Below are positions 10,522 to 49,415 of a stretch of DNA of 64,000 nt, piece after piece. The stretch's first letter is position 1, and every line of letters begins with the position of its first letter. Origin of the DNA: Verrucomicrobiaceae bacterium (lineage in GTDB: Bacteria > Verrucomicrobiota > Verrucomicrobiia > Verrucomicrobiales > Akkermansiaceae); assembly GCA_051252135.1 (NCBI GenBank), contig JBPOGH010000001.1:288001-352000 (forward strand). The letters are read 5' to 3'. The notes below the pieces were generated by a model. The model saw nothing but the letters and a program-made list of their open reading frames with translations, was not told where the DNA came from and did no database searches. The translations under genes were made by a program, and so were the position numbers.

Positions 10522-11604
10522 ATGTCAAAACCCAAGCTTTTCATCCCAGGACCAGTCGATGTTGCCCCTGAAACCTATGCTGCCATGGCCGGCCCGGCCA
10601 TCGGCCATCGCGGAAAGGACTTCGAAGAATTATACGCCTCGATCCAACCAGGTATCCGCGAGGTTGTTGGAACTTCCCGTCCCGTCTTCTTCTCCACATC
10701 CTCTGCTTGGGGAGTCATGGAAGGATGCATTCGGAACCTCGTAAAGAAGAAGGTTCTCAATTTGTGCTGCGGCGCCTTCTCGGACAAATGGTTCGGAGTA
10801 GCCCAAAGCTGTGGCAAGGATGCCGAGAAAATCCAAGTGGAATGGGGACAGCCCATCGACCCCGAAGATGTCCGGGCCAAGCTCAGCGAAGGCGGCTTTG
10901 ACACGGTCACGCTTGTCCATAACGAGACCTCAACCGGAGTCCTCAACCCTCTCAAGGAAATCTCCGAGGTCGTCAAATCCTTCGAAGGGGTCCTCCTGGT
11001 TGTCGACACCGTATCCTCTCTTTCGGCAATGCCGATCAACTTCGACGAGCTAGGCATCGATGTGCTTCTCGCTGGTGTTCAAAAAGCCATTGCCCTCCCC
11101 CCTGGCCTTGCCGTTTTCGTAACCTCTGATGCTGCCCTTGAGCGCGCCTCAACAATTGATGACCGGGGTTACTATTTTGATTTTTGTGAATTTGCATCGA
11201 ATGATGCCAAGAATAACACTCCTTCCACCCCGGCGATCCCCCATCTCTACGGTCTCCTGGAGCGTGTAAATGTGATGATTGAGGAGGGTTTGGAAAATCG
11301 CTTCAAGAGGCATGCTTCCAATAACGCCATGGTTCACGCATGGGGGGCGAAACATGGCTTCGAACTCCTTCCACCAGAAGGTTATCGCTCGCTTTCACTT
11401 TCCTGTTTCGTCACCCCTGACAATCTCGATCAAGGTGGCTGGATCAAAGCGGTTAGCCAGAACCATGGATTCGCCATTAACGGTGGTTACGGGAAGATCA
11501 AAGGCAAGACTTTCCGGATTTCAAACATGGGCAACGAGACGGCGGAAACGATGCAGGAGCTCCTCGATGCTCTCGATGCGGAATTGCCAAAATTTCTTAG
11601 CTGA
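10522..11604 (+). CDS. Class V PLP aminotransferase (alanine-glyoxylate/serine-pyruvate family)
   Basis: LFIPGP, VHNETSTG, VDTVSS, GVQKAIALPPGL (PLP lysine), FRISNMG. Confidence 0.93.
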   Translation: MSKPKLFIPGPVDVAPETYAAMAGPAIGHRGKDFEELYASIQPGIREVVGTSRPVFFSTSSAWGVMEGCIRNLVKKKVLNLCCGAFSDKWFGVAQSCGKDAEKIQVEWGQPIDPEDVRAKLSEGGFDTVTLVHNETSTGVLNPLKEISEVVKSFEGVLLVVDTVSSLSAMPINFDELGIDVLLAGVQKAIALPPGLAVFVTSDAALERASTIDDRGYYFDFCEFASNDAKNNTPSTPAIPHLYGLLERVNVMIEEGLENRFKRHASNNAMVHAWGAKHGFELLPPEGYRSLSLSCFVTPDNLDQGGWIKAVSQNHGFAINGGYGKIKGKTFRISNMGNETAETMQELLDALDAELPKFLS

Positions 11605-16436: not shown

Positions 16437-18182
16437 TTAGTAAACGTCACGCTGGTAGCGCTTATTCTTCTTTAAGGCGTCAACATATGCAGTGGCGTCT
16501 TCTTGTGAAATCCCCCCCTGTTCGGAAATGATGTCGATCAAGGCGCCGTGAACATCTTTGGCCATGCGTGAGGCATCTCCGCACACATAGAAATAAGCTC
16601 CTTTTTCCAGCCATGCATAGATGTCCGCAGCACGCTTTCGCATCACATCCTGAACATAAACCTTCTCAGGTTGGTCCCGGGAAAAGGCGACATCGAGACG
16701 CGTCAACGCCTTCGCCTTGAGGTGATCCTGCCATTCCAGCTGATAAAGGAAGTCAAAATTGTAATGTTGGTCTCCAAAGAAGAGCCAACTCTCCCCTGTC
16801 GCACCTCGTTCGGCCCGCTCCTCAACGAAGGCCCTGAAGGGCGCGATGCCCGTTCCCGGTCCAACCATGATAATTGGAGTCGCGTCGTCCTCAGGGAGCC
16901 TGAAATTCTTGTTGGCGTGTGTGTAGACCGCGACCTTGGATCCTACTTCCGCCTCGTCGGCAAGGAAGGTCGACGCCACTCCTTTGCGGGGTTTGCCGTG
17001 GCCATCATAGCGCACCGCTGCAACCGTGAGATGGACTTCACCGGGATGGGCTTTCGGGCTTGAGGCGATTGAATAAAGCCTCGGAGGCATCTTGCGCAGA
17101 ATGCTGACAAACTGCTGGGCCGTAAGTCCGGCCACTGGATAGCCCTCAAGCAGATCAATAATCTGGCGCCCCCATATCCACTCGGCAAATTGCACCTTAT
17201 TCTCGTCATCAAGAAGTGATTCAAGATCAACATTGGGCGCAAGCCCGAGGTATTTTTTGACGATGGCACGCGAGAGGGCGGTGATATCAAGCTTGGATCG
17301 AAGAGCCTCGCCAAAGCTGACCTTCTCTCCACCCTTGAGTTCGACTTCCTCGGATTCCGAAAAACCGGTTACTCTCAAGATGTCGGAAACCACGTCCTCC
17401 GCATTGAGCGGAACGACAGCGAGAGCATCTCCAACTTCATAGTTCATCCCCGATCCCTCAAGCGACAACTCCAGATGGATTGTTTCTTTCGCGCTTCCCT
17501 CACCATTGAGGATGACGTGATCCAACACCTCTGCCGGGAAATAATTCTTCTTGCCATACTCTACCGATGGTTGGGCGGAGATTGCAGCAACAGGTGCAGC
17601 ACTCCCACCACCCCCGACTTCGGCCAAGAAACGATCAAGCCAGGCATTGTAGCTATCCTCAAAGTCAACATCGCAGTCCTCTCGCGCAGTCAGTCGTTTC
17701 GCTCCCAGGTTCTCCAGTCGGGAATCAAATATTTTTCCGATTTCACAAAATTTCTCATAGGAAGTGTCTCCCAATGCACAAACCGAGAAGCTCGACCCCT
17801 TCAAGTCGGGCGACTCTTTCATGAAATTTTCATAAAAGCCTTCTACTGCCTCGGGCGGTTCACCATCTCCCCACGTGCTGATAATGAGTCCGATATTTTC
17901 AAAGGATGCCAAATCAGCAGGCTTGAGATCGGCGAGATTCTTCATCACGGCTTTTGCCCCCTTTTTCTTGGCTGCCTTTACTGTTCGATCGGCTAGCTCT
18001 TCACTATTTCCCGACTCTGTCCCGTATAAAATGGTCAACGTTGGTTGTTCGGCGACTGCTGCTGGAGCAATTCCGGCCAGGAATCCGCTCAACCAGCTGG
18101 ATTGTTCCGGTGTAAATCCTGAAATGAGGGCAGAAAGCGAGGTTTTCTGCTCCGGAGTAAAGGGCGCGTGCGATGGGATCAT
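16437..18182 (-). CDS. cysJ: Assimilatory sulfite reductase, flavoprotein subunit
   Basis: Flavodoxin [38 protein letters not shown]-terminal RYQRDVY. Confidence 0.97.
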
Positions 18183-34868: not shown

Positions 34869-37319
34869 ATGAAAAACCTCCTCTCCTTGGTTTCAATTAG
34901 CCTGCTGCTCCTGACACTTCGTGCTGCCGCCTTCTCTCCCCATGTGGAAGTGGTGGTCCCTCGGGGAGGTCAGAAAGGAACCGAGGTGCCGGTCACATTC
35001 ATCGGAGATCGCCTCTACGAACCCGAGGAGATCCTCTTCTATCAAAAGGGCATCTCGGCAAAAGACCTGGCAAAAGGGAAAGACCACAAATCGGTAAATG
35101 CCACATTCGTCATCGCTCCTGATGCTCCCCTTGGGGAATACTCGTTCCGGCTAAGAACCAAAGGCGGCCTCAGCTACCTCCGCACCTTCTGGGTCGGCCA
35201 GTTTCCTGTAGTCGACGAAGCTCGAGACAGCGAGAACAAGCGCGACCTCAACGACACCTTCGAGGAACCGCAGAACATCCCCATGAACGTCACGGTTCAT
35301 GGCACCGCACTTCGTGAGGACGCCGACTTCTACCGCGTCGAGGCCAAGAAGGGCCAACGCCTTTCAGTCGAGGTCGAAGGCCTCCGGCTGGGCCGCATGC
35401 TCTTTGACCCCTACGTGGCCATCCTTGATAAAAACCGCTTCGAGATTGCCGCAAATGATGACTCCACTCTTCTCCGCAGGGATTGCGCCTCCTCCGTCCT
35501 CATCCCGGAGGACGGTCCCTATACCATCCTCGTCCGCGAATCCGCCTATGAGGGCGAGAACAAATGCCAGTATCGACTCCATGTCGGAGACTTCCCCCGT
35601 CCTGTTTCGGTCTTTCCTCCGGCTGGAAAACCCGGAGAGCAAATCGAGTTCACGTTCACCGGCGATGCCTCGGGCCCCATCAAGCAATCGGTCACCCTTC
35701 CCGGTGAAGATGTAAGCATCCATGCCGGAAGCGGTGTCGTTTCTCCCTCCGGACTCCCGATCAGAGTCTCTCCGTTACCCTATCTCAACGAGGCCGAGCC
35801 AAACGAAAGCCTCAAGACTTCGATTCCGCTCCAAAACCCTCCCGCCATCCCCATCGCGTTTCAAGGCACCCTGTCTCATGACAAGGACGTGGATTACTTC
35901 CGTTTCTCCGCCAAAAAGGGGCAAAACCTCCGTGCCCGGGTTCTCGCACGGAGTCAGCGCTCTCCCCTCGACTCCGTCATTTCGATCCGATCCCTGAAAG
36001 ACAACAAGGCCATCGCTGATAACGACGACGAAACACAGGGAACTCCCGACAGCCGGGTCGACTTCACCATCCCTGAGGACGGAGAATACGCCCTTCGCAT
36101 TCGCGACCAACTCGGACGCAGCGGACCGGATTTTGTCTATCGAATCGAAATCGCCCCTCGCGAACCCTCTCTAAGCGTGTCCCTCCGTCCCGCCGACCGG
36201 AATGACAGCCAGAAATACAAAATGATCGCAGTCCCTCGTGGCAACCGGCTCATCGTTGTGCCTGGAATCAATCGCTCCAATATCGGATGCGCCGTCGACC
36301 TCAGTCACACAGGACTCCCTGTCGGGGTCGAGATGATCGCCCCTCACGCGCCCCGAAACATCAATGATTTCCCAATTCTCTTCGAGGCGGCTCACGATGC
36401 ACCACTTGCCGGACAGCTCTGCCAATTCCCTGTAAAAGATCCCAAATCTGGACTCACCGGATACTTTACCGAACAGATTGATCACGTCGCCGTCAACAAT
36501 CTCGGCATCTTCCATTCCTTCAACACCGAAAGAATTGCCGTCGCCGTCATTGAGGAAGCCCCCTTCACCTTGGACCTCTTCATTCCTCCGGTCCCATTGG
36601 TTCCCAACGGCACCACCAATCTCAAGATCACCGCCACACGCAAAGAAGGCTTCGATGAAAAAATCCGCCTCACCTTCCCCTGGAAACCTCCCGGCGTAAA
36701 CGCCCCCAACTCGATCGATATTCCCAAAGGGCAGAATGAAGTCATCCTCACCCTTAATGCCAACGGAGACGCCCCAACCGGTGACTGGCAGGTTGGCGTT
36801 ACTGCCACCGCACCCGCCAAAAACGGGCGTGGGGAAATCAGACTCTCCACCCCTCTCAGACCCCTTAAGGTCGGTGAGCCCTACCTCGGGATGAGTCTTC
36901 AAATGGCTGCGACCCAACCCGGTCAAAACACCCAGGTGATTGCCAACATTGAAAACCTGAAGAGCTTCGACGGTGAAGCCGAAGTGCGCCTCCACGCCCT
37001 CCCCCACGGAACCTCATCCAAACCCGTAAAAATCAAATCGGACACCAAGGAAATCGCCATTCCCGTTGAGGTCACCGGAGAAGCAAAAAAGGGCAAGCAC
37101 GGGAACCTATTCTGTCAGGTCATCGTTATCGAAAACGGCCACCCAATCTCCCACAATCTGGGTCACGGAGGAACTCTCCGTATCGATCCCCCGCCTCCGG
37201 CACCTAAAAAGCCGGTCGAGAAACCGGCCCCCGCAGTGGCCAATGTGGAACCCAAAAAACCGGAGACCAAAAAGCCCCTCTCACGACTCGAACAACTCCG
37301 CCAAGCCAAGTCCAAGTGA
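34869..37319 (+). CDS. Exported protein with pre-peptidase C-terminal (PPC)-like domains
   Basis: Signal peptide, PRGGQKG, repeated 'D.D.Y.F.AKKGQ.L' and 'E.EPN' PPC motifs, Lys/Pro-rich tail. Confidence 0.85.
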   Translation: MKNLLSLVSISLLLLTLRAAAFSPHVEVVVPRGGQKGTEVPVTFIGDRLYEPEEILFYQKGISAKDLAKGKDHKSVNATFVIAPDAPLGEYSFRLRTKGGLSYLRTFWVGQFPVVDEARDSENKRDLNDTFEEPQNIPMNVTVHGTALREDADFYRVEAKKGQRLSVEVEGLRLGRMLFDPYVAILDKNRFEIAANDDSTLLRRDCASSVLIPEDGPYTILVRESAYEGENKCQYRLHVGDFPRPVSVFPPAGKPGEQIEFTFTGDASGPIKQSVTLPGEDVSIHAGSGVVSPSGLPIRVSPLPYLNEAEPNESLKTSIPLQNPPAIPIAFQGTLSHDKDVDYFRFSAKKGQNLRARVLARSQRSPLDSVISIRSLKDNKAIADNDDETQGTPDSRVDFTIPEDGEYALRIRDQLGRSGPDFVYRIEIAPREPSLSVSLRPADRNDSQKYKMIAVPRGNRLIVVPGINRSNIGCAVDLSHTGLPVGVEMIAPHAPRNINDFPILFEAAHDAPLAGQLCQFPVKDPKSGLTGYFTEQIDHVAVNNLGIFHSFNTERIAVAVIEEAPFTLDLFIPPVPLVPNGTTNLKITATRKEGFDEKIRLTFPWKPPGVNAPNSIDIPKGQNEVILTLNANGDAPTGDWQVGVTATAPAKNGRGEIRLSTPLRPLKVGEPYLGMSLQMAATQPGQNTQVIANIENLKSFDGEAEVRLHALPHGTSSKPVKIKSDTKEIAIPVEVTGEAKKGKHGNLFCQVIVIENGHPISHNLGHGGTLRIDPPPPAPKKPVEKPAPAVANVEPKKPETKKPLSRLEQLRQAKSK

Positions 37320-40105
37320 TGAAAACCCTCATCTCCCTTCTTACCATTTCCCAACTGGGCGCGGTCACCTTTGAAGAGGTTCAGCCGATCCTCGAAACCT
37401 CCTGTGTCGAATGCCACAATTCCGACAAGGCAAAGGGCGAGCTTCAGCTTCAATCCCGTGAAGGATTGATCACCGGGGGCGATCTCGGGACTTCCATCGA
37501 CTTTGACAAGCCCGATCAATCCGAACTCATTCGCCGGGTCATGCTCCCGCATGATGACGACGAATTCATGCCCCCTTCCTCGAAGAAAAAGGCTCGCCCC
37601 CCGTTATCCGCAAAGGAAGTCGAGACCCTCAAGGGGTGGATCGCCGCCAAGGCTCCATGGCCTGAAGGCGTCACCTTGGTTCCCCGTGAAAGGGGCCCCA
37701 TCCTGGAGGACTCCAGCGCGCCCGATCCCCATCTCGGATCCATCGCCGTCTATCCCTCATCGGTGATCCTGGAAACAAAGCGGGACTCCCATCGCCTCAT
37801 CGTTCTCGCAACTGACAAGGATGCCATCACCCGGGATGTCACAGCCTCGGCCAATTATGCTCTAAAGGACCCTTCGCTCGCAAAAATCGAAGGTTCCACC
37901 CTTCTCCCTCTCAAAGATGGCAACACCACCGTGGTCATCAACTTCCGGGGTAAAACCTCTGAAATCCCCCTTGCCATCAAATCCGCCGATGCCGATCGCC
38001 GGATCAGCTTCCAACAGGATGTCGTCCCGGTTCTCACCGCCGCAGGATGCAACACCGGCTCCTGCCATGGCTCCGCACGCGGAAGGGACGGTTTCATGCT
38101 CTCCTTGTTCGGATACGATCCCGATGGCGACCACTACCGCATCACACGCGAACAATCCGGACGAAGGATCAATCTCGCGGTTCCCGGAGAATCACTCCTC
38201 CTCACCAAGGCTGTCGGGTCCGTCCCCCATACCGGAGGCAAGCTCTTTGACGAGGATCATCCGTTCTACACCACTCTCCTGGAATGGGTCCGGAACGGGG
38301 CCCAGGCCGACCCAAAGGACATTGCTCTCCCCGTTAAAATAGATGTCGAACCCAAGCAGTTTCTCCTCGAAGGGCAGGACAAAAAAATCCCTCTTACCGT
38401 TAAGGCAACTTACTCCGACGGAACCGACCGGGATGTCTCGTCGCTCTCGAGTTACACCACTTCCAATGACTCCTCGATTGGCATCGATCCATCCTCCGGC
38501 CTCGCGATCTCCAAGAAGCGCGGTGAAGCCTTCCTCATGGCTCGATTCCACACCTTCACCGAAGGCTCGCAGGCAATTGTGATCCCCGATGGGCTCGAGT
38601 ATGAACGCCCAAAGCTCGCCGAATACAATTACATCGACTCTCACGTCCACGAAAAGCTCCACAAGCTTCGCGTCATTCCCTCCGGGCTTTGCAGCGATGA
38701 AGAATTCATCCGCCGGGTCACCCTCGATATCACCGGACTTCTTCCTACCGAGGAAGAACGGGAGAATTTCCTCAAGGATGCCAACCCGAAGAAACGGGAG
38801 GCGATCGTCGACCAACTGTTGGAACGCAAGGAGTTCACCGAAATCTGGGTCATGAAGTGGGCCGAACTCCTTCAGATTCGCTCAACCGGCGGAAACGCCA
38901 ATGACATCAGCTACAAGGCAGCCCTTCTTTGGTACGAGCAACTTCGTACGGCCATCGCTGAAAACCGCCCATTCAACAAAATCATCCGGGACATCCTCTC
39001 CTCCCGCGGCGGAACCTTTGCCAACCCCTCCACCAACTACTTCAAACTGGAAGCGGACGTCAAAAAGGTAACCGAAAACGTAGCCCAGGTCTTTATGGGC
39101 ACCCGCATTCAGTGCGCACAATGCCACAACCACCCGTTCGACCGATGGACCATGGACGACTACTACGGCTTCGCTTCCTTTTTCTCCCAAGTGAAACGCA
39201 AACGCGCCGAGGACCCCTCGGAGCAAATCATTTTCGATGGGGGTGGCGAAATCAAACACCCGATCACCAATCAAAATGCCAAACCCAAATTCCTGGGGGG
39301 CGACTACCACACCCAAACCGGTGTGACCCGCCGTGAAGCGGTTGCCGACTGGCTCACCGCTCCTGAAAACCCCTGGTTCGCTCCCAATGTGGCCAATATC
39401 ATGTGGTCTCACTTCTTCGGTATCGGAATTGTCGATCCGGTCGACGACATCCGCGTCTCAAACCCCGCCACCAACCCCCAGCTCCTGGAGGCGCTTGGTG
39501 AGAAATTCGTCGATTACAACTTCGACATGAAAAAACTCGTTCGCGACATCTGCACCTCCCGAACCTACCAGCTCTCCACTAAGGTCAACGAGACGAACAA
39601 GGACGACCACACCAACTTCTCCCATGCCCGCATCCGGCGCCTCCGCGCCGAGGTTCTCCTCGACACCCTCGCCCAGTCGACAGGCACTCCCAACAAGTTC
39701 AAGGGCTTGCCGATCGGCTCACGTGCTGTCCAAATTGCCGACGGAAACACCTCCACCTACTTTCTCACCACCTTCGGCCGCGCAACCCGTGCAACGGTTT
39801 GCTCCTGCGAGGTCAAGATGGAACCCAACCTCTCCCAGGCCCTCCACCTCCTCAATGGCGACTCCGTTCACAACCGCATCGAACGCGGGCGCATCGTCCC
39901 CGACCTATTGAAGGAAAAGAAATCACCCGAGGAAATCATCCGCTCACTCTACCGCCGAACCATCACCCGGGAACCCACTGACGTGGAGCTTTCCAAGCTC
40001 ATGACCGAGGTTGGAAAGGCCGGGGACGATAACGCCAAAAAGCTGATTCTGGAGGATATCTTTTGGGCTCTGCTCAACTCCAAGGAATACCTCTTCAACC
40101 ACTGA
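37316..40105 (+). CDS. Planctomycete-type cytochrome c + Ig-like + DUF1549/DUF1553 protein
   Basis: CVECH, GCNTGSCHG, FIRRVTLDITGLLP, CAQCHNHPFD, ALLNSKEYLFNH. Confidence 0.92.
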   Translation: MMKTLISLLTISQLGAVTFEEVQPILETSCVECHNSDKAKGELQLQSREGLITGGDLGTSIDFDKPDQSELIRRVMLPHDDDEFMPPSSKKKARPPLSAKEVETLKGWIAAKAPWPEGVTLVPRERGPILEDSSAPDPHLGSIAVYPSSVILETKRDSHRLIVLATDKDAITRDVTASANYALKDPSLAKIEGSTLLPLKDGNTTVVINFRGKTSEIPLAIKSADADRRISFQQDVVPVLTAAGCNTGSCHGSARGRDGFMLSLFGYDPDGDHYRITREQSGRRINLAVPGESLLLTKAVGSVPHTGGKLFDEDHPFYTTLLEWVRNGAQADPKDIALPVKIDVEPKQFLLEGQDKKIPLTVKATYSDGTDRDVSSLSSYTTSNDSSIGIDPSSGLAISKKRGEAFLMARFHTFTEGSQAIVIPDGLEYERPKLAEYNYIDSHVHEKLHKLRVIPSGLCSDEEFIRRVTLDITGLLPTEEERENFLKDANPKKREAIVDQLLERKEFTEIWVMKWAELLQIRSTGGNANDISYKAALLWYEQLRTAIAENRPFNKIIRDILSSRGGTFANPSTNYFKLEADVKKVTENVAQVFMGTRIQCAQCHNHPFDRWTMDDYYGFASFFSQVKRKRAEDPSEQIIFDGGGEIKHPITNQNAKPKFLGGDYHTQTGVTRREAVADWLTAPENPWFAPNVANIMWSHFFGIGIVDPVDDIRVSNPATNPQLLEALGEKFVDYNFDMKKLVRDICTSRTYQLSTKVNETNKDDHTNFSHARIRRLRAEVLLDTLAQSTGTPNKFKGLPIGSRAVQIADGNTSTYFLTTFGRATRATVCSCEVKMEPNLSQALHLLNGDSVHNRIERGRIVPDLLKEKKSPEEIIRSLYRRTITREPTDVELSKLMTEVGKAGDDNAKKLILEDIFWALLNSKEYLFNH

Positions 40106-40110
40106 TCTCC

Positions 40111-42399
40111 ATGCGCTTCTTCAGTGTCCTCCCGCTTGTCTTCGGCGTCCTTCCGGCTGCCGAAAAAATCACCTACGAAGATCACATCTTCCCGATTTTT
40201 GAATCGGCATGTCTCAACTGCCACAATCCCGATAAAAAAAAGGGGGGACTCGATCTTTCGACCTATCAGGGAGTGACGGCAGGCGGCTCGGGTGGAAAAA
40301 TCGCACTGGCCGGAGACGGCGGAAGCTCCAAGCTATTCACCGTCACCGTTCACACCGAGGAGCCCGTCATGCCGCCGGAGGGCGATAAGATCGAGAAGAA
40401 GAATGCCGACCTGATTCGCGCTTGGATCGATGGCGGACTTCTCGAGACGAAATCCTCCAAGGCCCGTAAGCCAAGCAAACCCGCAATCTCACTCACTGCC
40501 ACCGGGAACGCTCAAACCAAGCCGGAAGGTCCCCTGCCAATGCCCGCCGACCTTCTCCTCGAGCCGGTTCTCGTTCCCCGCAGGGATACAGTCGTTAACG
40601 ACATGGACGCCAGCCCTTGGGCACCTCTCCTCGCAGTCACCTCTCAGAAACAAGTTCTTCTCTACCACACGGACTCGCTTGAACTCGTCGGCATCCTCCC
40701 CTTTCCGAAGGGAAATCCGGAAACAGTCTCATTCCACCCTGGTGGAAAATACCTCATTGCCGGCGGAGGCATTGGCGGCAAGTCAGGATCCACCGTCACT
40801 TGGGATATCACCACAGGCCAAGTGATTATGACAATGGGCAAAGAGTTCGATTCCGTTCTCGCTGCCGATCTCCGTGCCGACCTCGGCGGCATAGCTCTCG
40901 GAGGCCCATCCCGATTTGTGAAGTTGTGGGATACCCAGGCAAACGAAGAGATAGCCAAGATCAAAAAGCACACCGACTGGCTCATTTCGCTCAAGTATTC
41001 CCCTGACGGAGTCCTCCTCGCCACCGGTGGCCGCGGAAATGGCGTTCAAGTCTGGGAGGCCGCTACCGGAAACGAATTTCATAGTCTTCGGGGACATCAG
41101 GGCGGAATCATCGATCTCAAATGGAGGGCCGACTCCAACCTGCTCGCCTCCGCGTCATCTGATGGCGACATTGTCTTCTGGGACATGAATTCCGGAAATC
41201 AGGTGAAGAAACAACGGGCTCACAACGGAGGAGTTCTGGCCATGGACTATGCTCGCGATGGCCAACTCGCAAGCTCTGGACGCGATAAAAGGGTGAAGAT
41301 ATGGAAACCGGATCTTGGACTAAAAAAGGAACTTCCCGCCTTCAAGGAAGACGTAACCGAGGTGGAATTCTCCCACGATTCCAAACGTATTTTCACCGCC
41401 GACTGGAACGGTGAAATCAAGGTGTGGGAAAATGACTCCTTTAAAGAAGTCGGAACCCTGGATGCCAACCCGCCCGCCATCGCCACGCGACTGGTCGAGT
41501 TGAAGGGCCAGACCTCCACCTTGGCCAAGTCCACCGCCGACCTCCGCGCCGATCTCTCCAAAAAGGAAAAAGCGATGGTTGATGCCGCCAACTGGGTCAC
41601 TTGGCTCGAAAAAAAGATTCCCGAACTCAACAATCAAAAGAAAGGCATGGAGCAGGAGATCGCAAAGCTAAACGACCTTTGGAATCGCCACAACACTGAG
41701 CAAGAATCGCTTCAAAAACATCTCCAGCAACAGAGTCAGGAGTTGCAACAAATCCGTGAGAGTCTGGGTGGACTCGAGGAACAGCGAGCTAAGGCTGCCG
41801 AGGAATTGGTGGCTGCAAAGAAGACCGATGATCCTTCCAAAATAGCTCAAATCGAAAAGGCTCTCGGTAATCTTGATGCCGACATCAAGAACTCGCGGGA
41901 CGACATGGACAAAAGGCAGGGAGTCTTCAACAAGACCCGCGATGATCACAAGGTCGCCCTGCAAAAACGGGAGACTGCTGGATCAGCCCGGCAGTCCAGG
42001 CAAGAGGAACTAAAGTCGATCCTGGGTGAGATTCCCCAGCGGGAAAAAGAACTCGATCCTGCACGCAAAGGAAAAGAATGGACGGCCAAGGTCGTTCAGG
42101 AAACCAAATCACAAATCATTGCCGCTGAAAAATCCGAGGCCAACCATCTCGCTTCAATCGCCCGCTGGCAGGCGGCACAGATCAACACCGAATTGATCGC
42201 CACCGAAGACCTCTTGACCGCAGCAGCCGCACAACTCGAAAACATGCGGTCGGATCTCCAACTCGCGGCAAAAGACGAAAAAATAGACGCCATCAGGGAG
42301 CTCAAAACCCGAATCGATACCGCTTCGTCAACCCACGCCGAACTGCTCTCCCGCAGAGACTCCCTCAAGACCCGCTACGAGGCCAGCAAGACAAAGTAA
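40111..42399 (+). CDS. Planctomycete-type cytochrome c + WD40 repeat + long coiled-coil protein
   Basis: CLNCH...MPP, WD40 repeats (HTDW..., GHQG...WD), heptad-rich C-terminus. Confidence 0.9.
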   Translation: MRFFSVLPLVFGVLPAAEKITYEDHIFPIFESACLNCHNPDKKKGGLDLSTYQGVTAGGSGGKIALAGDGGSSKLFTVTVHTEEPVMPPEGDKIEKKNADLIRAWIDGGLLETKSSKARKPSKPAISLTATGNAQTKPEGPLPMPADLLLEPVLVPRRDTVVNDMDASPWAPLLAVTSQKQVLLYHTDSLELVGILPFPKGNPETVSFHPGGKYLIAGGGIGGKSGSTVTWDITTGQVIMTMGKEFDSVLAADLRADLGGIALGGPSRFVKLWDTQANEEIAKIKKHTDWLISLKYSPDGVLLATGGRGNGVQVWEAATGNEFHSLRGHQGGIIDLKWRADSNLLASASSDGDIVFWDMNSGNQVKKQRAHNGGVLAMDYARDGQLASSGRDKRVKIWKPDLGLKKELPAFKEDVTEVEFSHDSKRIFTADWNGEIKVWENDSFKEVGTLDANPPAIATRLVELKGQTSTLAKSTADLRADLSKKEKAMVDAANWVTWLEKKIPELNNQKKGMEQEIAKLNDLWNRHNTEQESLQKHLQQQSQELQQIRESLGGLEEQRAKAAEELVAAKKTDDPSKIAQIEKALGNLDADIKNSRDDMDKRQGVFNKTRDDHKVALQKRETAGSARQSRQEELKSILGEIPQREKELDPARKGKEWTAKVVQETKSQIIAAEKSEANHLASIARWQAAQINTELIATEDLLTAAAAQLENMRSDLQLAAKDEKIDAIRELKTRIDTASSTHAELLSRRDSLKTRYEASKTK

Positions 42400-42407
42400 A
42401 TCCATGT

Positions 42408-42443
42408 TTGCCGCCTTGCTGTGACGCCGGTATTCTCTTCCCG
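42408..42443 (+). promoter_or_regulatory. Sigma70-like promoter abutting the start codon (leaderless-type)
   Basis: TTGCCG-N17-TATTCT-N7-ATG(42444). Confidence 0.6.
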
Positions 42444-44141
42444 ATGCTACGGTTTTTTCTCCTGACCATTTTCTGTCTCTCGCGATTGCCTGCTCAGGTA
42501 TCCGAGACCCCCACTCTCCAAAAGTCCCGCTACGATAAGGATTTAAGCGACGCCTATGACCGAATCGACCCTCTCAAAGACGGCTGGACATCCGAGGAGT
42601 TGAACGAACAATTCGGCCACCACCTAAAGGAGTTCGTTCACCGAATCACCGATCCCGAATTCAAATCGGTTAATCTGAACGACGAAACCCTCTCCGCGAC
42701 GCCCTTGCGCCCGTCGAGTTTGGAGAATGTCACCGTCGACCAATTTGTAATCCAGAGAGGAACCGGTCTTCCCGAGAAATTTGCCTCGGCCCCAATCCCC
42801 GATCTCAAAGGACATTCGACGAAGGTCAAAGTCGTCACCATCGAACCCCTGGCCTGCACCGCATTGATCACATTCAAGAAGCCCGGCCACCAGGTTAACG
42901 CCACCTGGAAGTGCACTTGGACACCCGACTTGGAGCTAAAATCACTCCAGGTGCTGGACTACGAAGAAGTCACCGGGCCCCCACTCCTCCGGGACATCAC
43001 CGAGTCAGTCCTTGGAGATGTCGACTCCTATCACGAACAACTCCTTCGCTCAACCGATCACTGGCGACTCCGTCTCCCCCGTGATTTCGGGCTTGATGCC
43101 CCTGCCAACCACGGACTCGCCCTCGGAGACATCAACGGTGATGGGCTTGAGGACCTCTACCTTTGCCAGCAGGGCGGCCTCCCCAATCGACTCTATTTAC
43201 AAAACGATGATGGCACCTTGAGAGACTTTAGCGTGGAGAGTAAAACCGACATTCTCGACTACTGCGCATCAGCCCTGATCATCGATCTTGATAACGATGG
43301 CGACAAGGACCTGGTGGTCTCTCAGGATTTCAAAATTCTCTTTTTTGATAACCTGGATGGCAAGGGTCACTTCGAACTCGTCTTCGGACAGTCCACCCGC
43401 GCTCAAAGCTTTTCCCTGACCGCTGCCGATGTCGATGTCGATGGCTTCCTCGATGTCTACATCTGCGGATACAACCCTTCCTATTCCTCTGCCCGTGCCG
43501 GCGCGTTGGGTGAGCCCATCCCTTTCCACGACGCCAATAACGGAGGACCCAACATGCTTTGGCGGAACCTGGGAAATTGGAACTTCGAAGACATCGCCGA
43601 AAAGACCGGGCTTGATGCCAACAACACCCGTTTTTCATTTGCCGCTTCTTTCGAGGACTATGACAACGATGGCGATCTCGACCTTTACGTCGCAAACGAT
43701 TTCGGACGAAATTGCCTCTACCAAAACCAAGGCATCCAAAAGAACGGACTCCCTTTCTTCAAGAACATCGCCGAATCGCTTGAGGTCGAGGACACCTCCG
43801 CTGGGATGTCCTCAAACTGGGGTGACATTAATCGTGATGGCCACATGGACCTCTACGTCAGCAACATGTTCTCCAGCGCCGGGAACAGGATCACCTTCCA
43901 AAGCAAATTCAAACAAGGAGTCGACGACTCAATCCGGTCCCATTACCAACGTATGGCCAGAGGAAACACCCTCTTCCAGGCGGATGGCAAAGGTGGTTTC
44001 AAAGACATTGCGATGGAAAGCCACACCACCATGGCCCGTTGGTGCTGGGGCTCCACGTTTACCGACCTCAACAACGATGGCTGGCAGGACATCTTGGCGG
44101 CCAATGGATTCATCACCGCTGAAGATACCGGAGACCTCTGA
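42444..44141 (+). CDS. Exported FG-GAP/VCBS-repeat (CRTAC1-like) protein; N-terminal part of a probable UGA-recoded gene continuing to 46154
   Basis: Signal peptide MLRFFLLTIFC; repeated D.[ND].DG..D[LIV] Ca-binding motifs; ends ...DTGDL-TGA in frame with the next ORF. Confidence 0.88.
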   Translation: MLRFFLLTIFCLSRLPAQVSETPTLQKSRYDKDLSDAYDRIDPLKDGWTSEELNEQFGHHLKEFVHRITDPEFKSVNLNDETLSATPLRPSSLENVTVDQFVIQRGTGLPEKFASAPIPDLKGHSTKVKVVTIEPLACTALITFKKPGHQVNATWKCTWTPDLELKSLQVLDYEEVTGPPLLRDITESVLGDVDSYHEQLLRSTDHWRLRLPRDFGLDAPANHGLALGDINGDGLEDLYLCQQGGLPNRLYLQNDDGTLRDFSVESKTDILDYCASALIIDLDNDGDKDLVVSQDFKILFFDNLDGKGHFELVFGQSTRAQSFSLTAADVDVDGFLDVYICGYNPSYSSARAGALGEPIPFHDANNGGPNMLWRNLGNWNFEDIAEKTGLDANNTRFSFAASFEDYDNDGDLDLYVANDFGRNCLYQNQGIQKNGLPFFKNIAESLEVEDTSAGMSSNWGDINRDGHMDLYVSNMFSSAGNRITFQSKFKQGVDDSIRSHYQRMARGNTLFQADGKGGFKDIAMESHTTMARWCWGSTFTDLNNDGWQDILAANGFITAEDTGDL

Positions 44142-44152
44142 AGTGTTTATTG

Positions 44153-44169
44153 GCGACAGGTCGTGTCGC
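44153..44169 (+). promoter_or_regulatory. Candidate bacterial SECIS element
   Basis: GCGACA-GGTCG-TGTCGC perfect 6-bp stem starting 11 nt after the in-frame TGA (44139-44141); CAGGUC core as in E. coli fdhF SECIS. Confidence 0.72.
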
Positions 44170-46154
44170 AATCGCCCCTCGATTCACAAGGGCTTGACGG
44201 AAACCTCTCCAGCTACCGAAAAGGCTGGAAGGCACTTAACCGCCTTCTCCATGAGAACAAATCCTTCAGTGGTCGCGAAACCAATAACGCCTTCCTGAAT
44301 TGCGGGGAAGGAAACTCCCGCTTCGCTGATATCTCCTCTGCAATCGCATGGGACTTTCCTGACGACGCCCGGGCCATCGGCGCCATCGATTGGGACTTTG
44401 ACGGTGATCTCGATTACTGGGTCACCAATCGCAGCGCTCCCCGGCTTCGGCTCCTCGAAAACACCCTTGCCAGCGACAACCACTTTGTAGCCTTCCTCCT
44501 CGAGGGAACTGCAAAGACAACCAATCGCGACGCCATCGGAGCTCGCATTGAACTTCGAATCAAAGGCGACCCCCGCCCCCATTTACGCACCTTGCACGCA
44601 GGTCACTCCTTCCTTTCACAATCCTCCCGTTGGGTTCATTTTGGATTAGGAGCAGGAAAAGAAATCTCTTCAATCACCGTGTCGTGGCCGGGTGGTGACA
44701 TCGAAAAATTCACCCCTCCGGCAGTAGACGGATATTTCCGGCTAAAACAAGGAACCCCTCAGCCAACCCCATTCGTCCGCAAACCGATTGCCCCTCTTGA
44801 GCCATCAATTCAGCCGGTGCCGCCGGGCACGCCCATCGCACGTATTATCCCCCCGGCCGGCCACATTCTTCCCCCTCTGGAGCTGGACGATGGTTCCTTG
44901 GATATCTCCTCTCCCGTTTTAATCCAACTTTGGAGCGGCTTGTGCAACCACTGCCAGGCTGAACTACCCCACTGGAAGGAATGGAACGATCGCATCCTCG
45001 TTTCCGCGGATATGAGCCCGGAATCAAAAGAAGCCTGTCGCCTCGCCTACGCTGCCGCCGGATTCAAGGACGAACCCCTTTTTGCCAGTGAGGACACCAT
45101 GATCGCCCTCGACGCGATTCAGTCCTCGTTGGTCGACCTCTGGGTCCCCCTTCCCGTCCCCAGCGCGTTCCTGGTCTCCGGCGATCGGGAAATCATCGCA
45201 ATCTATCGCGGCCCGATCGATCAGAATCAGGTCGAAAACGATAAAAAGCTCATCGGCACCCTGGACCGCCGAGATGCGGCAGCACCTTTCCCTGGAATCT
45301 GGATTTCCGAAGTTCCCATTGGAACCCCGTTGCGGGCGGCAAACCAGCTTCTTGAACGCGGGATGAACTCAGGGGCAATCAGCTACTTAAAAGAAGCCAC
45401 TCCCCGTCTTCACCCGAACCTCAGCCGATTCGAAAAAGGCGACACCCTGTTTACCCTTGGTCGACTCCTGGGCGCCAACGCGCAACCCAAAGAGGCTCTC
45501 CCCTTCCTCAAGCAATCCATGGAATTTCTTCCCGAAGACGTCCGCGTCGGACTTCTTTTGGCCCAAGCTTATGCAGATCTCGGTAACACGACCGAAGCAC
45601 TGCAGGCAAACTTGAAGACACTGACCCGTCACCCGGCCAATCTCGACCTTCTCAAGCAACGGTCGGCAATCTTGCACCGGTTGGAACAATGGGATTCCGC
45701 CGTCGAAACGGATCAGCGCATCGTCTCGCTCAACCCCCACTCCGGTGCTGCCATGGTTCGACTCGGGGAGGCTCTTCTCATGGCGGACAGACCCGGCGAT
45801 GCTCTCTCGCAGTTTAAGTCAACCCTCTCTAAACATCCGCGTGAACTTGCTGCTGCGGCCGCTCTTTCACGAATCCTCTCTAGCCATCCCGATGAATCGG
45901 TGCGAAGTCCGGACGAAGCTCTCGTCCTCGCTGCCCGCCTTTGCCAATTCACGAGGAACAAGAATGCTGAATTCCTCCTTACCAATGCCATGGCCCTCTG
46001 CAATCTCTCACGCTTCAAGGAAGCTGCGGAAGCGCTCGAGTTGGCAGTTGGAGGCCGCGAGCACCTCGGAAACATGAGCGTTCTTGCTCGAGAAACCTCA
46101 CAAGCCATCAAGGAACAGCGACCTGTAAGGCTGAAAAACCTACTGGCACGCTAA
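44163..46154 (+). CDS. ASPIC/UnbV domain + thioredoxin-like CxxC + TPR protein; C-terminal part of the probable selenoprotein
   Basis: SFSGRETN, DWDFDGDLD, NRDAIGARI, SFLSQSSRWVHFGLG (UnbV), WSGLCNHC, TPR helices; no signal peptide of its own. Confidence 0.85.
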   Translation: MSQSPLDSQGLDGNLSSYRKGWKALNRLLHENKSFSGRETNNAFLNCGEGNSRFADISSAIAWDFPDDARAIGAIDWDFDGDLDYWVTNRSAPRLRLLENTLASDNHFVAFLLEGTAKTTNRDAIGARIELRIKGDPRPHLRTLHAGHSFLSQSSRWVHFGLGAGKEISSITVSWPGGDIEKFTPPAVDGYFRLKQGTPQPTPFVRKPIAPLEPSIQPVPPGTPIARIIPPAGHILPPLELDDGSLDISSPVLIQLWSGLCNHCQAELPHWKEWNDRILVSADMSPESKEACRLAYAAAGFKDEPLFASEDTMIALDAIQSSLVDLWVPLPVPSAFLVSGDREIIAIYRGPIDQNQVENDKKLIGTLDRRDAAAPFPGIWISEVPIGTPLRAANQLLERGMNSGAISYLKEATPRLHPNLSRFEKGDTLFTLGRLLGANAQPKEALPFLKQSMEFLPEDVRVGLLLAQAYADLGNTTEALQANLKTLTRHPANLDLLKQRSAILHRLEQWDSAVETDQRIVSLNPHSGAAMVRLGEALLMADRPGDALSQFKSTLSKHPRELAAAAALSRILSSHPDESVRSPDEALVLAARLCQFTRNKNAEFLLTNAMALCNLSRFKEAAEALELAVGGREHLGNMSVLARETSQAIKEQRPVRLKNLLAR

Positions 46155-46298: not shown

Positions 46299-49200
46299 AT
46301 GAACCCCAACAACCTCTTCAAACCCGTCTTTGGCCTCATCGGCCTCCTTTCAACGGGCCATCTGTCCGCCCAGTTTAATGCCGACCTCACCGGTTATTGG
46401 CCTCTCGACACAAATCTGACAGATGCTTCCAGCAACGGCGGAGACGGAACATTCGCTTCCAATGGCGTCTCGACCAGCCCCTCATTTACGTCCGGTGGAG
46501 TCGGTGCCGGAAGCGCACGATTTGGCGAAGCGATTCTCCTCACCGCAGCCAACGAAGAGCGCGTGAGCATCGACGGAGCGGGAAACCCCGGTTTTCTTGG
46601 CGAGGACACCTATGATTTCACTGGTGGCAGCACCACCATCTCTTTTTGGTGCTCCACCACTGCGGGGTTCACGAGCAGCTGGCAGGCCTTGGTTGCGAAG
46701 GGCGAAAACAGCGGATGGCGCGTGTCCCGACGTGGTGATGACAACGTTCTCGCCTACGCCGGAGGTTTCGGAAATGACAGTGCGGAAGGCACATCAGATG
46801 CCTCTGTCGGTCTCCATCACGTCGTCGCGGTCACCGATGCCGCCCGCGGAATTTATCTCTATGTCGATGGCCAGCTTGAATCATTCGTCCCCGGGAACCC
46901 TGCCCTCACTGATTCCGCCTCGTTCATGGAAATCGGAGGCAACCCCATTAACGGCGGAAGAACCCTCAATGGCACGATCGACGACGTCCTTTTGTTTGCC
47001 CGACCCCTCACCGGTCCTGAAGTCGCTACAATCTACAATAATGGAAACGGCACCGTGGGTTCCGATATTGTGACTTCCGCCGATGGCGACTCGGACGGCA
47101 TCCCCGATTTCTATGAAATCGCCAACGGCCTGAATCCCGCAGTCGACGATGCTGCCGGTGATCTGGATAGTGACAACCTTTCCAATCTCGACGAATACAA
47201 TGCCGGCTTGGGTGCAAACAACAATGATGCCGACGGAGACGGACTTTTCGACGGAGATGAAATTGCCAATAATGCCGATCCGTTGAATCCCGATTCCGAT
47301 GGTGACGGACTCTCGGATGGCGATGAAGTGAATATCCACTCCACCTTGCCGGATAACCCCGACAGTGACAACGATCAGGCAACCGACTTCGATGAAGTCA
47401 AAGCCAACACCGACCCCAATGACGATACGGACTTCCCCAGCTCGTGGAGCCTTGGACTGGTAGGCTATTGGAACTTTGACAACTCTCTTGCAGACACCTC
47501 CGGAACTGGCGCTGACGGCACCTTCATCAACGACACCGCGGGTTCCCCGGTCTACGCCCTTGGAAAGTTTGGCGACGGAATCTCACTCGACTCCCTCACA
47601 AATGACCGTGTGGAAATTCAATCGGTCCCCGAATCTACTTACGATTTCACCGGCGCTGACATGACCGTATCCCTCTGGTGCTCCACCACCGGATTCACCG
47701 AAAACTGGCAGGGAATTATCGCGAAGGGCGAAGGCACAAGCTGGCGGATTGCCCGTGCTGCGGGCACCAATCAGGCGTCCTTCAACCCCGGAGAATGGAA
47801 GCCCGATGGAGATGATATTCAAGGCGGTGACATTAGCGACGGCTCCCTGCATCACATCGTGGCCGTAACCAATACCGCAGGGACCGGCCAACTGTGGGTC
47901 GATGGAGTCAAAGTCGCAGAGACCACCGCTCCCCCCATCATCGGAAACACCTCCCTCAACATGCTCATCGGTGGAAACCCCGGTGCTGACGGTTTCAGAA
48001 CCTGGCCGGGAATCATTGATGATGTCGCCATTTGGGGGCGCCCACTCTCCGCTTCGGAAATCGGACGCATCTATGCCGGTGGAGGTGGAACGAGTATCAA
48101 TGGACTGATCAATGACCCGGACACCGATGGCGATGGCCTCCCCGATAGCTGGGAGATTGCCAACATGACAGACCGCTTGGTCGCGGACGCTGATGCGGAC
48201 CCTGACTTGGACCAACGCACCAATATTCAGGAGTTTCAAGACGGCACCAACCCTCAAGACGACGATTCGGACGACGACCTCCTAAAAGACGGGGAAGAAG
48301 CCACCGCCGGCTCAAACCCTCTCGTGCCGGACACAGACCGTGACAACCTCAGTGACGGTGACGAGGTGATCACCCACATGACCGATCCTACCCTCCATGA
48401 TACTGACATGGATGGATTCTCGGATTCCGTGGAATTGGAATATTCAACCGATCCCAATCTGGACACCAGCTTCCCCTCTCTCGATCAAGGACTTTTGGGG
48501 TATTGGCCACTCGATGAAGACTTCATCGATGACACCAATTCTGGAGGAGATGGAACATACTTTGATAACGCGGCAGGCAGCCCGGTCTTCCAAACCGGAA
48601 AATATGGCAATGCCATCCTCTTTGATTGGAATAACAATCAGTATGTCACGATCGACGGTGCAGGAGTCTCGACTCCTCCGGACTACACCCAGGCCGGAGA
48701 AAGTGTCTCGATCTCCGTTTGGAGCAGCGTGACCACCTTCTCGGAGAACTGGCAAGGCCTTGTCGCCCGTGGCGAAGGGTCCGCCTGGCGTGTTGCAGGT
48801 CGCGGCACCAATGGAAATAACACCGGGCAATATGCTTACGCCGGAGGCACCGGAGACATCGTTTCTCCATTGAGCTACGATGACGGACAATTCCATCACA
48901 TCGTGGCGGTCACCGAAAAGGGGTTCAACGTCCGCCTCTATATCGACGGAGTTAAGGTCTCGGATAGCGGAACCAACGCCCCCCTGCTTAGCGACAATAA
49001 CAACGCCAATAATATTCTCATCGGAGGAAACCCCGATGCCATTACCCGTTCCTGGAATGGCCTGGTGGATGATGTTGCGATCTGGGCCCGTCCACTCTCG
49101 GACACCGAGATTTCGGACCTCTTCATGGCAACCCAGTCTCTGGGGCAACAGTTGGGGCTGGGACTCAATCCCGAACTCAGAATCACCAACGTCACTAAGA

Positions 49201-49415
49201 ATAGTAACGGGACGGTCACCCTCACTTGGAATTCCAAGGATTCAGCCACTGCAAATTACGGGGTTTTCGCTTCAAATGACCTCTCTCTCCCTCTCGAGTC
49301 TTGGCTCGAGGTGATAGATGAAGTGCCCAGCGCCGGAGTGACAACAAGCTTCACAGTGCCATCCGACACCATCGGAGGTGCAGACAAGCTGTTTTTCTAT
49401 GTGAGAGAAAACTAA
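46299..49415 (+). CDS. Large exported protein with three LamG-like jelly-roll domains and Ca-binding DxDxDG repeats
   Basis: Three repeats of GYW.[LF]D...W..[LI][VI]A[KR]GE..WR...HH[IV]VAV...[LI][YW][VI]DG...IGGNP...DDV; D.D.DG..D..E spacers. Confidence 0.9.
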   Translation: MNPNNLFKPVFGLIGLLSTGHLSAQFNADLTGYWPLDTNLTDASSNGGDGTFASNGVSTSPSFTSGGVGAGSARFGEAILLTAANEERVSIDGAGNPGFLGEDTYDFTGGSTTISFWCSTTAGFTSSWQALVAKGENSGWRVSRRGDDNVLAYAGGFGNDSAEGTSDASVGLHHVVAVTDAARGIYLYVDGQLESFVPGNPALTDSASFMEIGGNPINGGRTLNGTIDDVLLFARPLTGPEVATIYNNGNGTVGSDIVTSADGDSDGIPDFYEIANGLNPAVDDAAGDLDSDNLSNLDEYNAGLGANNNDADGDGLFDGDEIANNADPLNPDSDGDGLSDGDEVNIHSTLPDNPDSDNDQATDFDEVKANTDPNDDTDFPSSWSLGLVGYWNFDNSLADTSGTGADGTFINDTAGSPVYALGKFGDGISLDSLTNDRVEIQSVPESTYDFTGADMTVSLWCSTTGFTENWQGIIAKGEGTSWRIARAAGTNQASFNPGEWKPDGDDIQGGDISDGSLHHIVAVTNTAGTGQLWVDGVKVAETTAPPIIGNTSLNMLIGGNPGADGFRTWPGIIDDVAIWGRPLSASEIGRIYAGGGGTSINGLINDPDTDGDGLPDSWEIANMTDRLVADADADPDLDQRTNIQEFQDGTNPQDDDSDDDLLKDGEEATAGSNPLVPDTDRDNLSDGDEVITHMTDPTLHDTDMDGFSDSVELEYSTDPNLDTSFPSLDQGLLGYWPLDEDFIDDTNSGGDGTYFDNAAGSPVFQTGKYGNAILFDWNNNQYVTIDGAGVSTPPDYTQAGESVSISVWSSVTTFSENWQGLVARGEGSAWRVAGRGTNGNNTGQYAYAGGTGDIVSPLSYDDGQFHHIVAVTEKGFNVRLYIDGVKVSDSGTNAPLLSDNNNANNILIGGNPDAITRSWNGLVDDVAIWARPLSDTEISDLFMATQSLGQQLGLGLNPELRITNVTKNSNGTVTLTWNSKDSATANYGVFASNDLSLPLESWLEVIDEVPSAGVTTSFTVPSDTIGGADKLFFYVREN

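Follow-up and report, generated by a model that had tools for sequence, protein, structure and literature searches.

A gene of a Verrucomicrobiaceae bacterium that is interrupted by a single in-frame TGA very probably encodes a selenoprotein: judged from its sequence, the TGA would be read as selenocysteine (Sec), with selenium inserted at this residue. The gene lies in a 64,000-nucleotide stretch of contig JBPOGH010000001.1, termed the window herein. Standard annotation yields two open reading frames (ORFs) (42444-44141 and 44163-46154). A preliminary description of this DNA had proposed a split gene with one frame open across the TGA, coding for about 1236 amino acids with Sec at about residue 566, and translation bore this out: the frame comprises 1236 residues, contains the TGA at residue 566 as its only one and ends with TAA. 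It thus shows the in-frame UGA within a continuous coding frame by which selenoprotein genes are recognized. The promoter proposed for the upstream half fared less well: a promoter and terminator scan, with counts near those expected by chance, found no site upstream of position 42444. A weak match visible by eye scored below its threshold, ends 7 nt before the ATG and would give a leaderless mRNA.

Features of the read-through gene (positions in the window)
Feature	Position	Strand	Remarks
Possible sigma-70-type promoter, weak	42408..42436	+	By eye; 8/12 consensus bases, 17-nt spacer
Whole read-through gene	42444..46154	+	About 1236 amino acids, predicted Sec at residue 566
Probable signal peptide	42444..42500	+	By eye; short basic start, hydrophobic core
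NTF2/SnoaL-like domain, approximate bounds	42579..42995	+	Own model, pLDDT 92
Seven-motif FG-GAP beta-propeller, CRTAC1 type, approximate bounds	42972..44474	+	
FG-GAP motif starts	43128, 43284, 43428, 43656, 43824, 44064, 44388	+	Conserved Cys241 and Cys341 in propeller
In-frame TGA, predicted Sec566	44139..44141	+	Predicted helix start in insertion past sixth FG-GAP motif
Bacterial SECIS-type hairpin	44153..44169	+	6-bp stem from 12 nt after UGA; 5-nt loop, first G
ASPIC/UnbV (PF07593)	44532..44729	+	Residues 697-762, E 7.1e-15
Trx-like (TlpA/redoxin-type) domain, W-x3-CxxC	44916..45248	+	From alignment; C834 at 44943, C837 at 44952
TPR repeats	45453..46088	+	TPR_19 E 3.3e-12, plus related models

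The UGA is followed, after 11 intervening bases, by a 17-nt hairpin with a folding energy of -7.9 kcal/mol on its own, which confirms the geometry given in the preliminary description; the AUU/AAU extension of the stem claimed there can be drawn by eye but is absent from the predicted folds of positions 44150-44172. We take the hairpin to be comparable to the SECIS element of Escherichia coli fdhF. The published consensus for such elements is a loop of 3-9 nt, a stem of 4-16 bp, a G in the first two loop positions, a spacing of 16-37 nt and an energy of at most -7.5 kcal/mol (PMC13188914). The hairpin falls within all of these limits, with a 5-nt loop that opens with G, a 6-bp stem and 17 nt from the UGA to the loop, its energy barely passing the cut-off (-7.9 versus -7.5 kcal/mol). 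Compared with shuffled sequences, this energy was not significant (z values of 0.30, -1.02 and -1.06), and an Rfam search of positions 44000-44400 returned one chance match far below the gathering score; the significance of the hairpin comes from its conservation and not from its folding energy. With expected counts obtained by redrawing codons from each gene's own usage, the full stem was found in 35 of 39 distinct TGA contexts of the first locus set (1.7 expected) and at 40 of the 51 TGA sites from Acidobacteriota and Planctomycetota (2.2 expected), compared to 2 of 9 homologues with a sense codon (0.8 expected). In the stem alignment, 98.6% of the cells were paired and nine double changes were present, a result reached in none of 500 shuffles. 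The stem is kept at synonymous positions with compensatory changes, and the hairpin is under selection beyond that on the protein sequence. For comparison, among 1368 open stretches of at least 300 codons that end in TGA, 10 carry this stem, and 6 of these 10 belong to the propeller family described here. The base directly after the UGA was an A in all 39 contexts of the first set, with 3 exceptions among the 51 of the second, which may reflect the history of an inherited Ser codon.

The genome encodes the machinery for Sec insertion. A search for selA, selB, selC and selD, as suggested in the preliminary description, found all four: SelA (403.8 bits), SelB (299.2 bits), tRNA-Sec (61.2 bits) and SelD, the latter with an in-frame TGA of its own. 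Seven further in-frame TGAs were found in known selenoprotein-type families of the same genome, so that the propeller family accounts for 7 of the 14 Sec codons found. One of these other genes, of the formate dehydrogenase type, has a near-identical hairpin (6-bp stem at +13, GGUC-type loop); selenoproteins of the formate dehydrogenase alpha type, like the window gene, combine a UGA with a SECIS element inside the ORF. It is very improbable that the UGA is instead read as Trp or Cys, be it because the codon is reassigned throughout the genome, because read-through is leaky or because of an unusual tRNA. The variety of residues accepted at this site in homologues would suit such a reading, but none of the 119 read-through homologues has Trp there, the formate dehydrogenase-type gene has a matching hairpin, and the only tRNA with a TCA anticodon found was the standard tRNA-Sec, in an ARAGORN total of 38 tRNAs that may be an incomplete list. 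Moreover, TGA ends neighboring ORFs: the preliminary description had listed ordinary TGA stops at 11604, 26388, 37319, 40105 and 60311, all five of which do read TGA on the plus strand, and those at 37319 and 40105 were seen to end ORFs.

Conservation of the codon was examined among paralogs and across phyla, as had also been suggested, and both the TGA and the covarying stem were found to be kept. All seven copies in the genome with a stop at the Sec column (the query and six paralogs, with 31-56% identity over the junction) have the TGA and the hairpin; a Cys paralog in the same genome has no hairpin. Only 11 close relatives, together with 22 distant rows, came out of the search for related loci. 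Altogether, TGA was present at 106 sites in Verrucomicrobiota, Planctomycetota and Acidobacteriota (55 in the first locus set and 51 in the Acidobacteriota and Planctomycetota set, where 5 of 65 loci had no located site), and TAA or TAG at none. A strain-specific nonsense mutation or a sequencing error, both considered in the preliminary description, was not indicated by these data; with the same TGA in six paralogs and three phyla, and with contigs from another sample in the same study that span the codon with zero differences, the probability of a recent mutation or error is negligible, and we rejected this explanation as already refuted by conservation.

It is also highly unlikely, and even less probable than reading as Trp or Cys, that the TGA is a true stop between two genes, with translation restarting at the GTG at 44163 and the two chains assembling later. 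Both ORFs are long, and GTG is found at the restart position of 88 of the 106 TGA sites. At 17 of the 106, however, this codon is GCG, ACG, CTG, GTC or GGG, with the stem mostly kept. The untranslated gap would furthermore hold W570 and R571, which lie between the TGA and the next start and do not vary among 95 aligned proteins; no stop codon other than TGA occurs at the site; and more than a hundred homologues consist of a single chain. In agreement with the preliminary description, a signal peptide is probable by eye on the upstream half, and none is evident on the second half.

The occurrence of the family follows that of the Sec machinery. All 27 relatives that gave a match have selA, and none of the 11 relatives lacking selA gave one. 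In the two other phyla, 39 of 40 TGA-bearing genomes have selA and the remaining one has selB, although selA is also common in those genomes of the two phyla that gave no match (26 of 34) and related genomes are not independent. A family gene adjoins selA in one genome (G365), and in another (G033) it is two genes away from selD/selB/selA/tRNA-Sec. A phylum-wide draw of 300 Verrucomicrobiota genomes (≥90% complete) gave 0 matches at an E value of 1e-8, indicating that the family is patchy.

The full-length protein is predicted to contain six FG-GAP-type motifs upstream of the TGA and a seventh downstream of it (44388-44414), the latter as proposed in the preliminary description. Matches to PF13517 and PF07593 place a propeller ahead of ASPIC/UnbV, the arrangement that marks CRTAC1-like proteins. 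These two assignments had been made before; the NTF2-like domain, the CxxC domain and the TPR repeats had been missed. Pfam AhpC-TSA/Redoxin matches to the CxxC domain were obtained for homologues and three paralogs, and for the window protein itself there was no match at E 0.001. NCBIfam 20.0 held no family model, the matches being of the TPR type and below their own cut-offs. For the N-terminal domain, the top rows of a VIA alignment were NTF2-like chains (Z 7-8.4, rmsd 3-4), a middling similarity that speaks for the fold only, and the ESM Atlas gave only unnamed clusters, with recognition below the reliable level. The DxDxDG loop motifs are present in the propeller, for which cation binding is predicted.

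The predicted structure of residues 26-965 (pLDDT 94.5, pTM 0.95) is closest to murine CRTAC1 (PDB 9ETN; VIA Z 40.0, rmsd 2.2, 458 residues aligned; next best Z 26.8), and Foldseek gave an E value of 1.4e-26 over the propeller and the following beta domain. In a sequence search of solved structures, TPR proteins dominated and CRTAC1 appeared at E 1.6e-28. The identity to CRTAC1 is only 17-22%, no known enzyme activity is transferable, and unlike CRTAC1, the window protein adds NTF2-like, Trx-like and TPR domains as well as the Sec-bearing helical insertion. In the model, the Sec opens a helix (model residues 541-551) that is inserted in blade 6.

The residues that replace Sec in homologues were unexpected for a selenoprotein. 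Among 119 read-through homologues, the sense residues at this column were N32 A20 S18 E13 G12 D9 C7 R3 Q3 Y2, where C7 includes the query itself, read as C. The usual pairing of Sec with Cys, a criterion for discovering selenoproteins and not for defining them, is thus largely missing, although Cys homologues do exist, and their scarcity weakens a plain catalytic reading; the common non-Cys residues indicate that Sec is dispensable in many lineages. The preliminary description had named homologues with a sense codon other than Cys, together with an unconserved TGA and hairpin, as evidence against its proposal. The first half was observed and the second was not, and since the TGA and the hairpin are conserved, the non-Cys homologues do not refute recoding. 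Six of ten genomes with non-Sec read-through homologues still have selA. The Sec is linked to the CxxC of the Trx-like domain: all 52 Sec-type rows that have this domain contain the motif (the query being counted twice), compared to 12 of 100 non-Cys, non-Sec rows, and in the Acidobacteriota and Planctomycetota set it is present in 42 of 47 Sec-type rows versus 0 of 7. Of the six Cys-type rows that have the domain, four lack the motif, and in short Sec-type paralogs the thioredoxin domain is missing altogether. On the tree, Sec was lost independently 14 times, 11 times to a residue other than Cys, after which CxxC was missing throughout in 7 cases, kept in 6 and mixed in 1. That Sec is accompanied by an intact CxxC suggests an internal redox relay.

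These data also bear on the possibility, which we regard as unlikely, that recoding is real and Sec chemistry secondary. UGA and hairpin would then form a selenium-dependent switch, with any small residue fitting position 566: cells lacking selenium would make no more than an N-terminal fragment with six blades, which is probably unstable, and cells with selenium the full protein. The toleration of N, A, S, E, G and D at the site, the 11 non-Cys replacements and the position of the TGA ahead of the last propeller motif, so that termination removes blade 7 and everything downstream, are in line with a switch. However, the CxxC is kept in nearly all Sec-type copies and has been lost in many non-Sec lineages, a pattern that connects the residue with thiol chemistry; exactly at the Sec column, distant short relatives have Cys; and in the model the site starts a helix, a position that favors reactive thiolates and selenolates.

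We consider a cell-envelope selenol/thiol enzyme with a Sec566-CxxC relay to be the most likely function, at roughly an even chance. By binding the hairpin 12 nt past the UGA, SelB would deliver Sec-tRNA and the ribosome would read through, giving a product with, in order, signal peptide, NTF2-like domain, seven-bladed Ca-binding-type propeller, ASPIC/UnbV, CxxC domain and TPRs. The full-length protein is probably exported. Sec566 would attack an oxidized or electrophilic substrate held in the conserved propeller loops and be re-reduced by the protein's own CxxC; the TPRs would bind partners, and the many paralogs would differ in substrate. TlpA/redoxin-type domains are known as fusions to a catalytic partner, for example, to methionine sulfoxide reductases. 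Like such fusions, the window protein is predicted to unite W-x3-CxxC and a reactive chalcogen residue in one chain; its partner, however, is a propeller with no assigned activity, and electron transfer is putative. In contrast to known bacterial selenoproteins, Sec566 lies outside any CxxU/UxxC or metal-binding motif, and the protein is large, probably exported and multicopy, with Cys homologues a small minority.

The preliminary description did not know the family as a selenoprotein family, and FG-GAP/ASPIC proteins are indeed absent from all 119 families in Table 1 of a 2026 catalogue (PMC13188914). They have been listed once as candidates: S9 Table of a 2016 study contains four split genes with these domains as candidate selenoproteins, three with a bSECISearch match, and gives G as the homologous residue in the closest database match, agreeing with the non-Cys residues found here (PMC4807772). 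The domain names, along with the Gly homologue, lead us to infer that these genes belong to the propeller family, so that ours is apparently not a first sighting. The table rows give no conservation, covariation, structure or thioredoxin link, and the main-text selenoprotein section is silent on the four genes (PMC4807772). Our literature search found no other selenoprotein link to FG-GAP, ASPIC, UnbV or CRTAC1; other recent surveys could list the family.

The recoding of UGA itself is textbook knowledge. What is added is a family that spans three phyla, has seven copies in the window genome, is split by gene callers and is missing from the 119-family catalogue. It appears to depart from the expectation of a conserved Cys counterpart at Sec sites, a working rule that underlies the discovery of most families, and other such selenoprotein families may therefore be missing too. 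For bacterial CRTAC1-like propellers, a candidate reactive residue that can be put to the test is now at hand, with a CxxC as its partner, and the family would add to the selenium needs of marine PVC bacteria, possibly to a substantial degree. Tentatively, the family may be an old and large one whose members, in Verrucomicrobiota, Planctomycetota and Acidobacteriota, act as selenoenzymes of the cell envelope, with a selenium chemistry that sulfur cannot replace; lineages losing Sec would drop the reaction rather than adopt Cys, often then lose CxxC and keep the scaffold as a binding protein. If this selenoenzyme reading is true, the family would represent a class invisible to searches for Cys/Sec pairs, and the CRTAC1 fold would have a catalytic role that is new for it.

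The frame that opens at window position 42444 (forward strand) runs for 565 codons to a TGA at 44139-44141 and for a further 670 to the TAA ending at 46154, as the preliminary description had proposed, giving a protein of 1236 residues when the TGA is decoded as selenocysteine (Sec566). The 17-nt hairpin that it had reported was likewise found, at 44153-44169, after a gap of 11 bases from the TGA, with a 6-bp stem, a 5-nt loop whose first base is G, and a folding energy of −7.9 kcal/mol. We take this hairpin to resemble the fdhF SECIS element of E. coli. Its folding energy was not unusual in comparison to shuffles of the same stretch. By the criteria of a 2026 review (PMC13188914), it fits the bacterial SECIS consensus, in energy barely so.

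Because the hairpin overlaps conserved codons, its conservation was assessed with the protein fixed and codons redrawn from each gene's own usage (2000 draws). In the first set of homologues, 35 of the 39 distinct contexts carried the full stem (1.7 expected; maximum of 6 in any draw), and the pairing codons were fixed under the same redraw, with GTG at 34/34 (11.6 expected) and TCG at 27/29 (6.0 expected). In two other phyla, where 60 sites were located among 65 loci, the full stem was found at 40 of 51 TGA sites (2.2 expected), several of the remainder folding in a shifted register, and at 2 of 9 sense-codon homologues (0.8 expected). Across 35 of the 39 contexts (four with 4-nt loops or a divergent register were left out of the alignment), 98.6% of cells were paired, with nine double changes, some altering the amino acid, a level reached by 0 of 500 shuffles and far above slid controls; these stem statistics are not probabilities because many of the sequences are kin, yet the pattern recurs in three phyla. 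Two sense-codon homologues, L129 (Glu) and L161 (Asp), retain the full 6-bp stem, which may be left over from a Sec codon lost not long ago or may be there by chance.

All stop-type sites carry TGA (106/106). The six further genes of the window's genome with a stop at the same column have TGA (6/6) and the hairpin (6/6), so that both features, whose conservation had been left to be checked, are kept in these paralogs and in homologues of three phyla. Exactly this stem geometry occurs in 10 of 1368 TGA-ended open stretches of at least 300 codons, and family members account for 6 of the 10. An error at the TGA is unlikely; the codon is identical in contigs that the same study obtained from a second sample of seawater. 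Two separate genes also make an improbable reading; the stretch from the TGA to the next potential start encodes W570 and R571, both invariant. Of the propeller motifs, six lie before the TGA and the seventh after it. Short contig pieces from other organisms or paralogs, two at depths in the thousands, align to the gene only at window 44123-44180, and this UGA-hairpin stretch appears to be its most conserved DNA.

SelA, SelB, SelD, and tRNA-Sec, which the preliminary description had wished to see in the genome, are all encoded there (4.58 Mb, 96.6% complete), each above its cut-off. Five family searches, with SelD in addition, yielded seven further in-frame TGAs, and the genes carrying them are probable further selenoproteins. 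A simple stem search found no perfect stem at 3 of the 7. A stem of 6 bp at +13 was found in the formate dehydrogenase-type gene; its loop differs by one base from that of the window hairpin, and this gene serves as an in-genome positive control. It is very probable that SelB and the in-frame hairpin would recode the UGA as Sec, and we consider any other decoding of it unlikely.

Positions of family members, other in-frame TGA genes, and neighboring loci (Cn, contigs of the window's genome, G000; L084, homologue locus in genome G033)
Feature	Location	Strand
Sec-type paralog	C1:611450	+
Sec-type paralog	C17:30656	-
Sec-type paralog	C23:220357	-
Sec-type paralog, short, without thioredoxin and TPR domains	C23:290625	-
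Sec-type paralog	C14:51825	-
Sec-type paralog, short, without thioredoxin and TPR domains	C12:106201	+
Cys paralog, shorter, TGC, no hairpin	C12:130679	-
Formate dehydrogenase-type (molybdopterin oxidoreductase, UHxP motif of formate dehydrogenase), in-frame TGA	C28:118334	-
MsrA, in-frame TGA	C29:20861	+
Deiodinase-like gene, in-frame TGA	C5:79986	+
Peroxiredoxin-type gene, in-frame TGA	C12:72834	+
Peroxiredoxin-type gene, in-frame TGA	C6:52943	-
Thioredoxin-like gene (weaker), in-frame TGA	C2:9976	-
SelD, in-frame TGA	C27:242604	+
Family gene; laminin-G/TSP3 protein; selD fused to pyridine nucleotide-disulfide oxidoreductase; selB; selA (in this order)	L084 5273-19922	
Operon: PPC-domain protein; DUF1549/DUF1553 protein with planctomycete cytochrome c; cytochrome c/WD40 protein	window 34869-42399	+

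Family matches were found in 27 of 40 relatives, with up to 20 per genome, and among the matches listed every one better than E 1e-13 had one TGA. selA was present in all 27 relatives with a match, none of the 11 without selA had one, and two selA-positive genomes had no match. In one genome (G019, C6:439865-441212), selA lies in two frames (frameshift or assembly error) though several TGA-type genes are present. None of 300 Verrucomicrobiota genomes drawn had a family match; draws built around one acidobacterial genome and one planctomycete genome gave 27/151 and 23/151, respectively, the acidobacterial 27 including two unpublished genomes (G392 and G490) that are excluded from all other counts. 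In these two-phyla draws, 39 of 40 TGA-bearing genomes had selA and the remaining one selB, and selA was also found in 6 of 10 genomes whose listed matches were all sense-codon copies and in 26 of 34 without a family match, a co-occurrence that is weak because selA is common in these phyla. As cases noticed rather than systematically counted, a family gene sits immediately 5' of selA in G365 and two genes away from selD, selB, selA, and tRNA-Sec in G033. At the latter locus, the laminin-G/TSP3 protein resembles that encoded at window 46299-49415, next after the family gene, and the tRNA-Sec predicted at 17576-17673 shares sequence with the 5' part of the long ORF called as selA.

The promoter claimed for the window gene was absent from a promoter scan; what stands is an 8/12 match by eye. 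This promoter-like match (within window 42408-42443) stops 7 nt short of the ATG; no ribosome-binding site is evident there, and the mRNA starting from it may be leaderless. The signal peptide was likewise assigned by eye from the sequence. A PVC-type operon lies 44 nt 5' of the gene.

Pfam assigned FG-GAP repeats, ASPIC/UnbV, and TPRs to the protein. A model of residues 26-965 (95 sequences; pLDDT 94.5, pTM 0.95) had murine CRTAC1 as its best structural match (Z 40.0, rmsd 2.2, 458 residues) and predicts that a helix inserted past motif six starts with Sec566. The N-terminal domain is like the NTF2/SnoaL fold at fold level only (Z 7-8.4), and alignment places C834-x-x-C837 in a thioredoxin-like domain. 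The protein presumably resembles reductase-thioredoxin fusions.

Among 119 read-through rows (the best 120 of 736 protein-search hits plus the query, minus two fragments without the site), the residue at the column was N 32, A 20, S 18, E 13, G 12, D 9, C 7 (one being the query), R 3, Q 3, and Y 2. For a FastTree phylogeny of 125 selected sequences, with four short relatives of Cys type as the root, the most parsimonious basal state was Sec (15 versus 17 steps), which was then replaced 14 times, in 3 cases by Cys; the sampling was biased and the margin small. CxxC was kept in 52/52 Sec-type rows with the domain (query counted twice) versus 12/100 rows with neither Cys nor Sec, and in the second set the corresponding counts were 42/47 and 0/7. 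The link is weaker by events: of 14 loss clades, 7 lack CxxC, 6 keep it, and 1 is mixed.

The family is uncatalogued in the sources consulted, but four split genes with these domains, probably members of it, were once listed by Kim et al. as selenoprotein candidates, three of them with a bSECISearch hit (PMC4807772, 2016, S9 Table). It is not in Table 1 of the 2026 review (PMC13188914; whole table and term search), nor was it found by term searches of the deep-Sep text and four supplements (PMC12013277) or the main text of the Haft and Gwadz preprint, nor in the BSepDB text and the available part of its supplement (PMC13326102). In the accessible part of another report, genes of the CRTAC1 family are described next to homologues of hydrazine synthase, and no selenium link is made (PMC12758564). 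According to the review, Cys homologues exist for nearly all selenoproteins, and searches depend on Cys/Sec pairs (PMC13188914), a reliance that may explain the family's omission there.

The favored function is that of a putative envelope enzyme, in which the conserved propeller face would hold a substrate for reaction with Sec566 and the fused CxxC would restore this residue afterward; we judge this about as apt to be wrong as right. Against it stand the residue's dispensability in many homologues and the short Sec-type paralogs without a thioredoxin domain. The main rival, a selenium-dependent switch in which residue identity is of little importance, seems rather improbable to us, and the envelope enzyme is preferred. 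That the Sec codon is real is well supported; its mechanism is a known one, and it is the pattern of residues at this position that is unusual.
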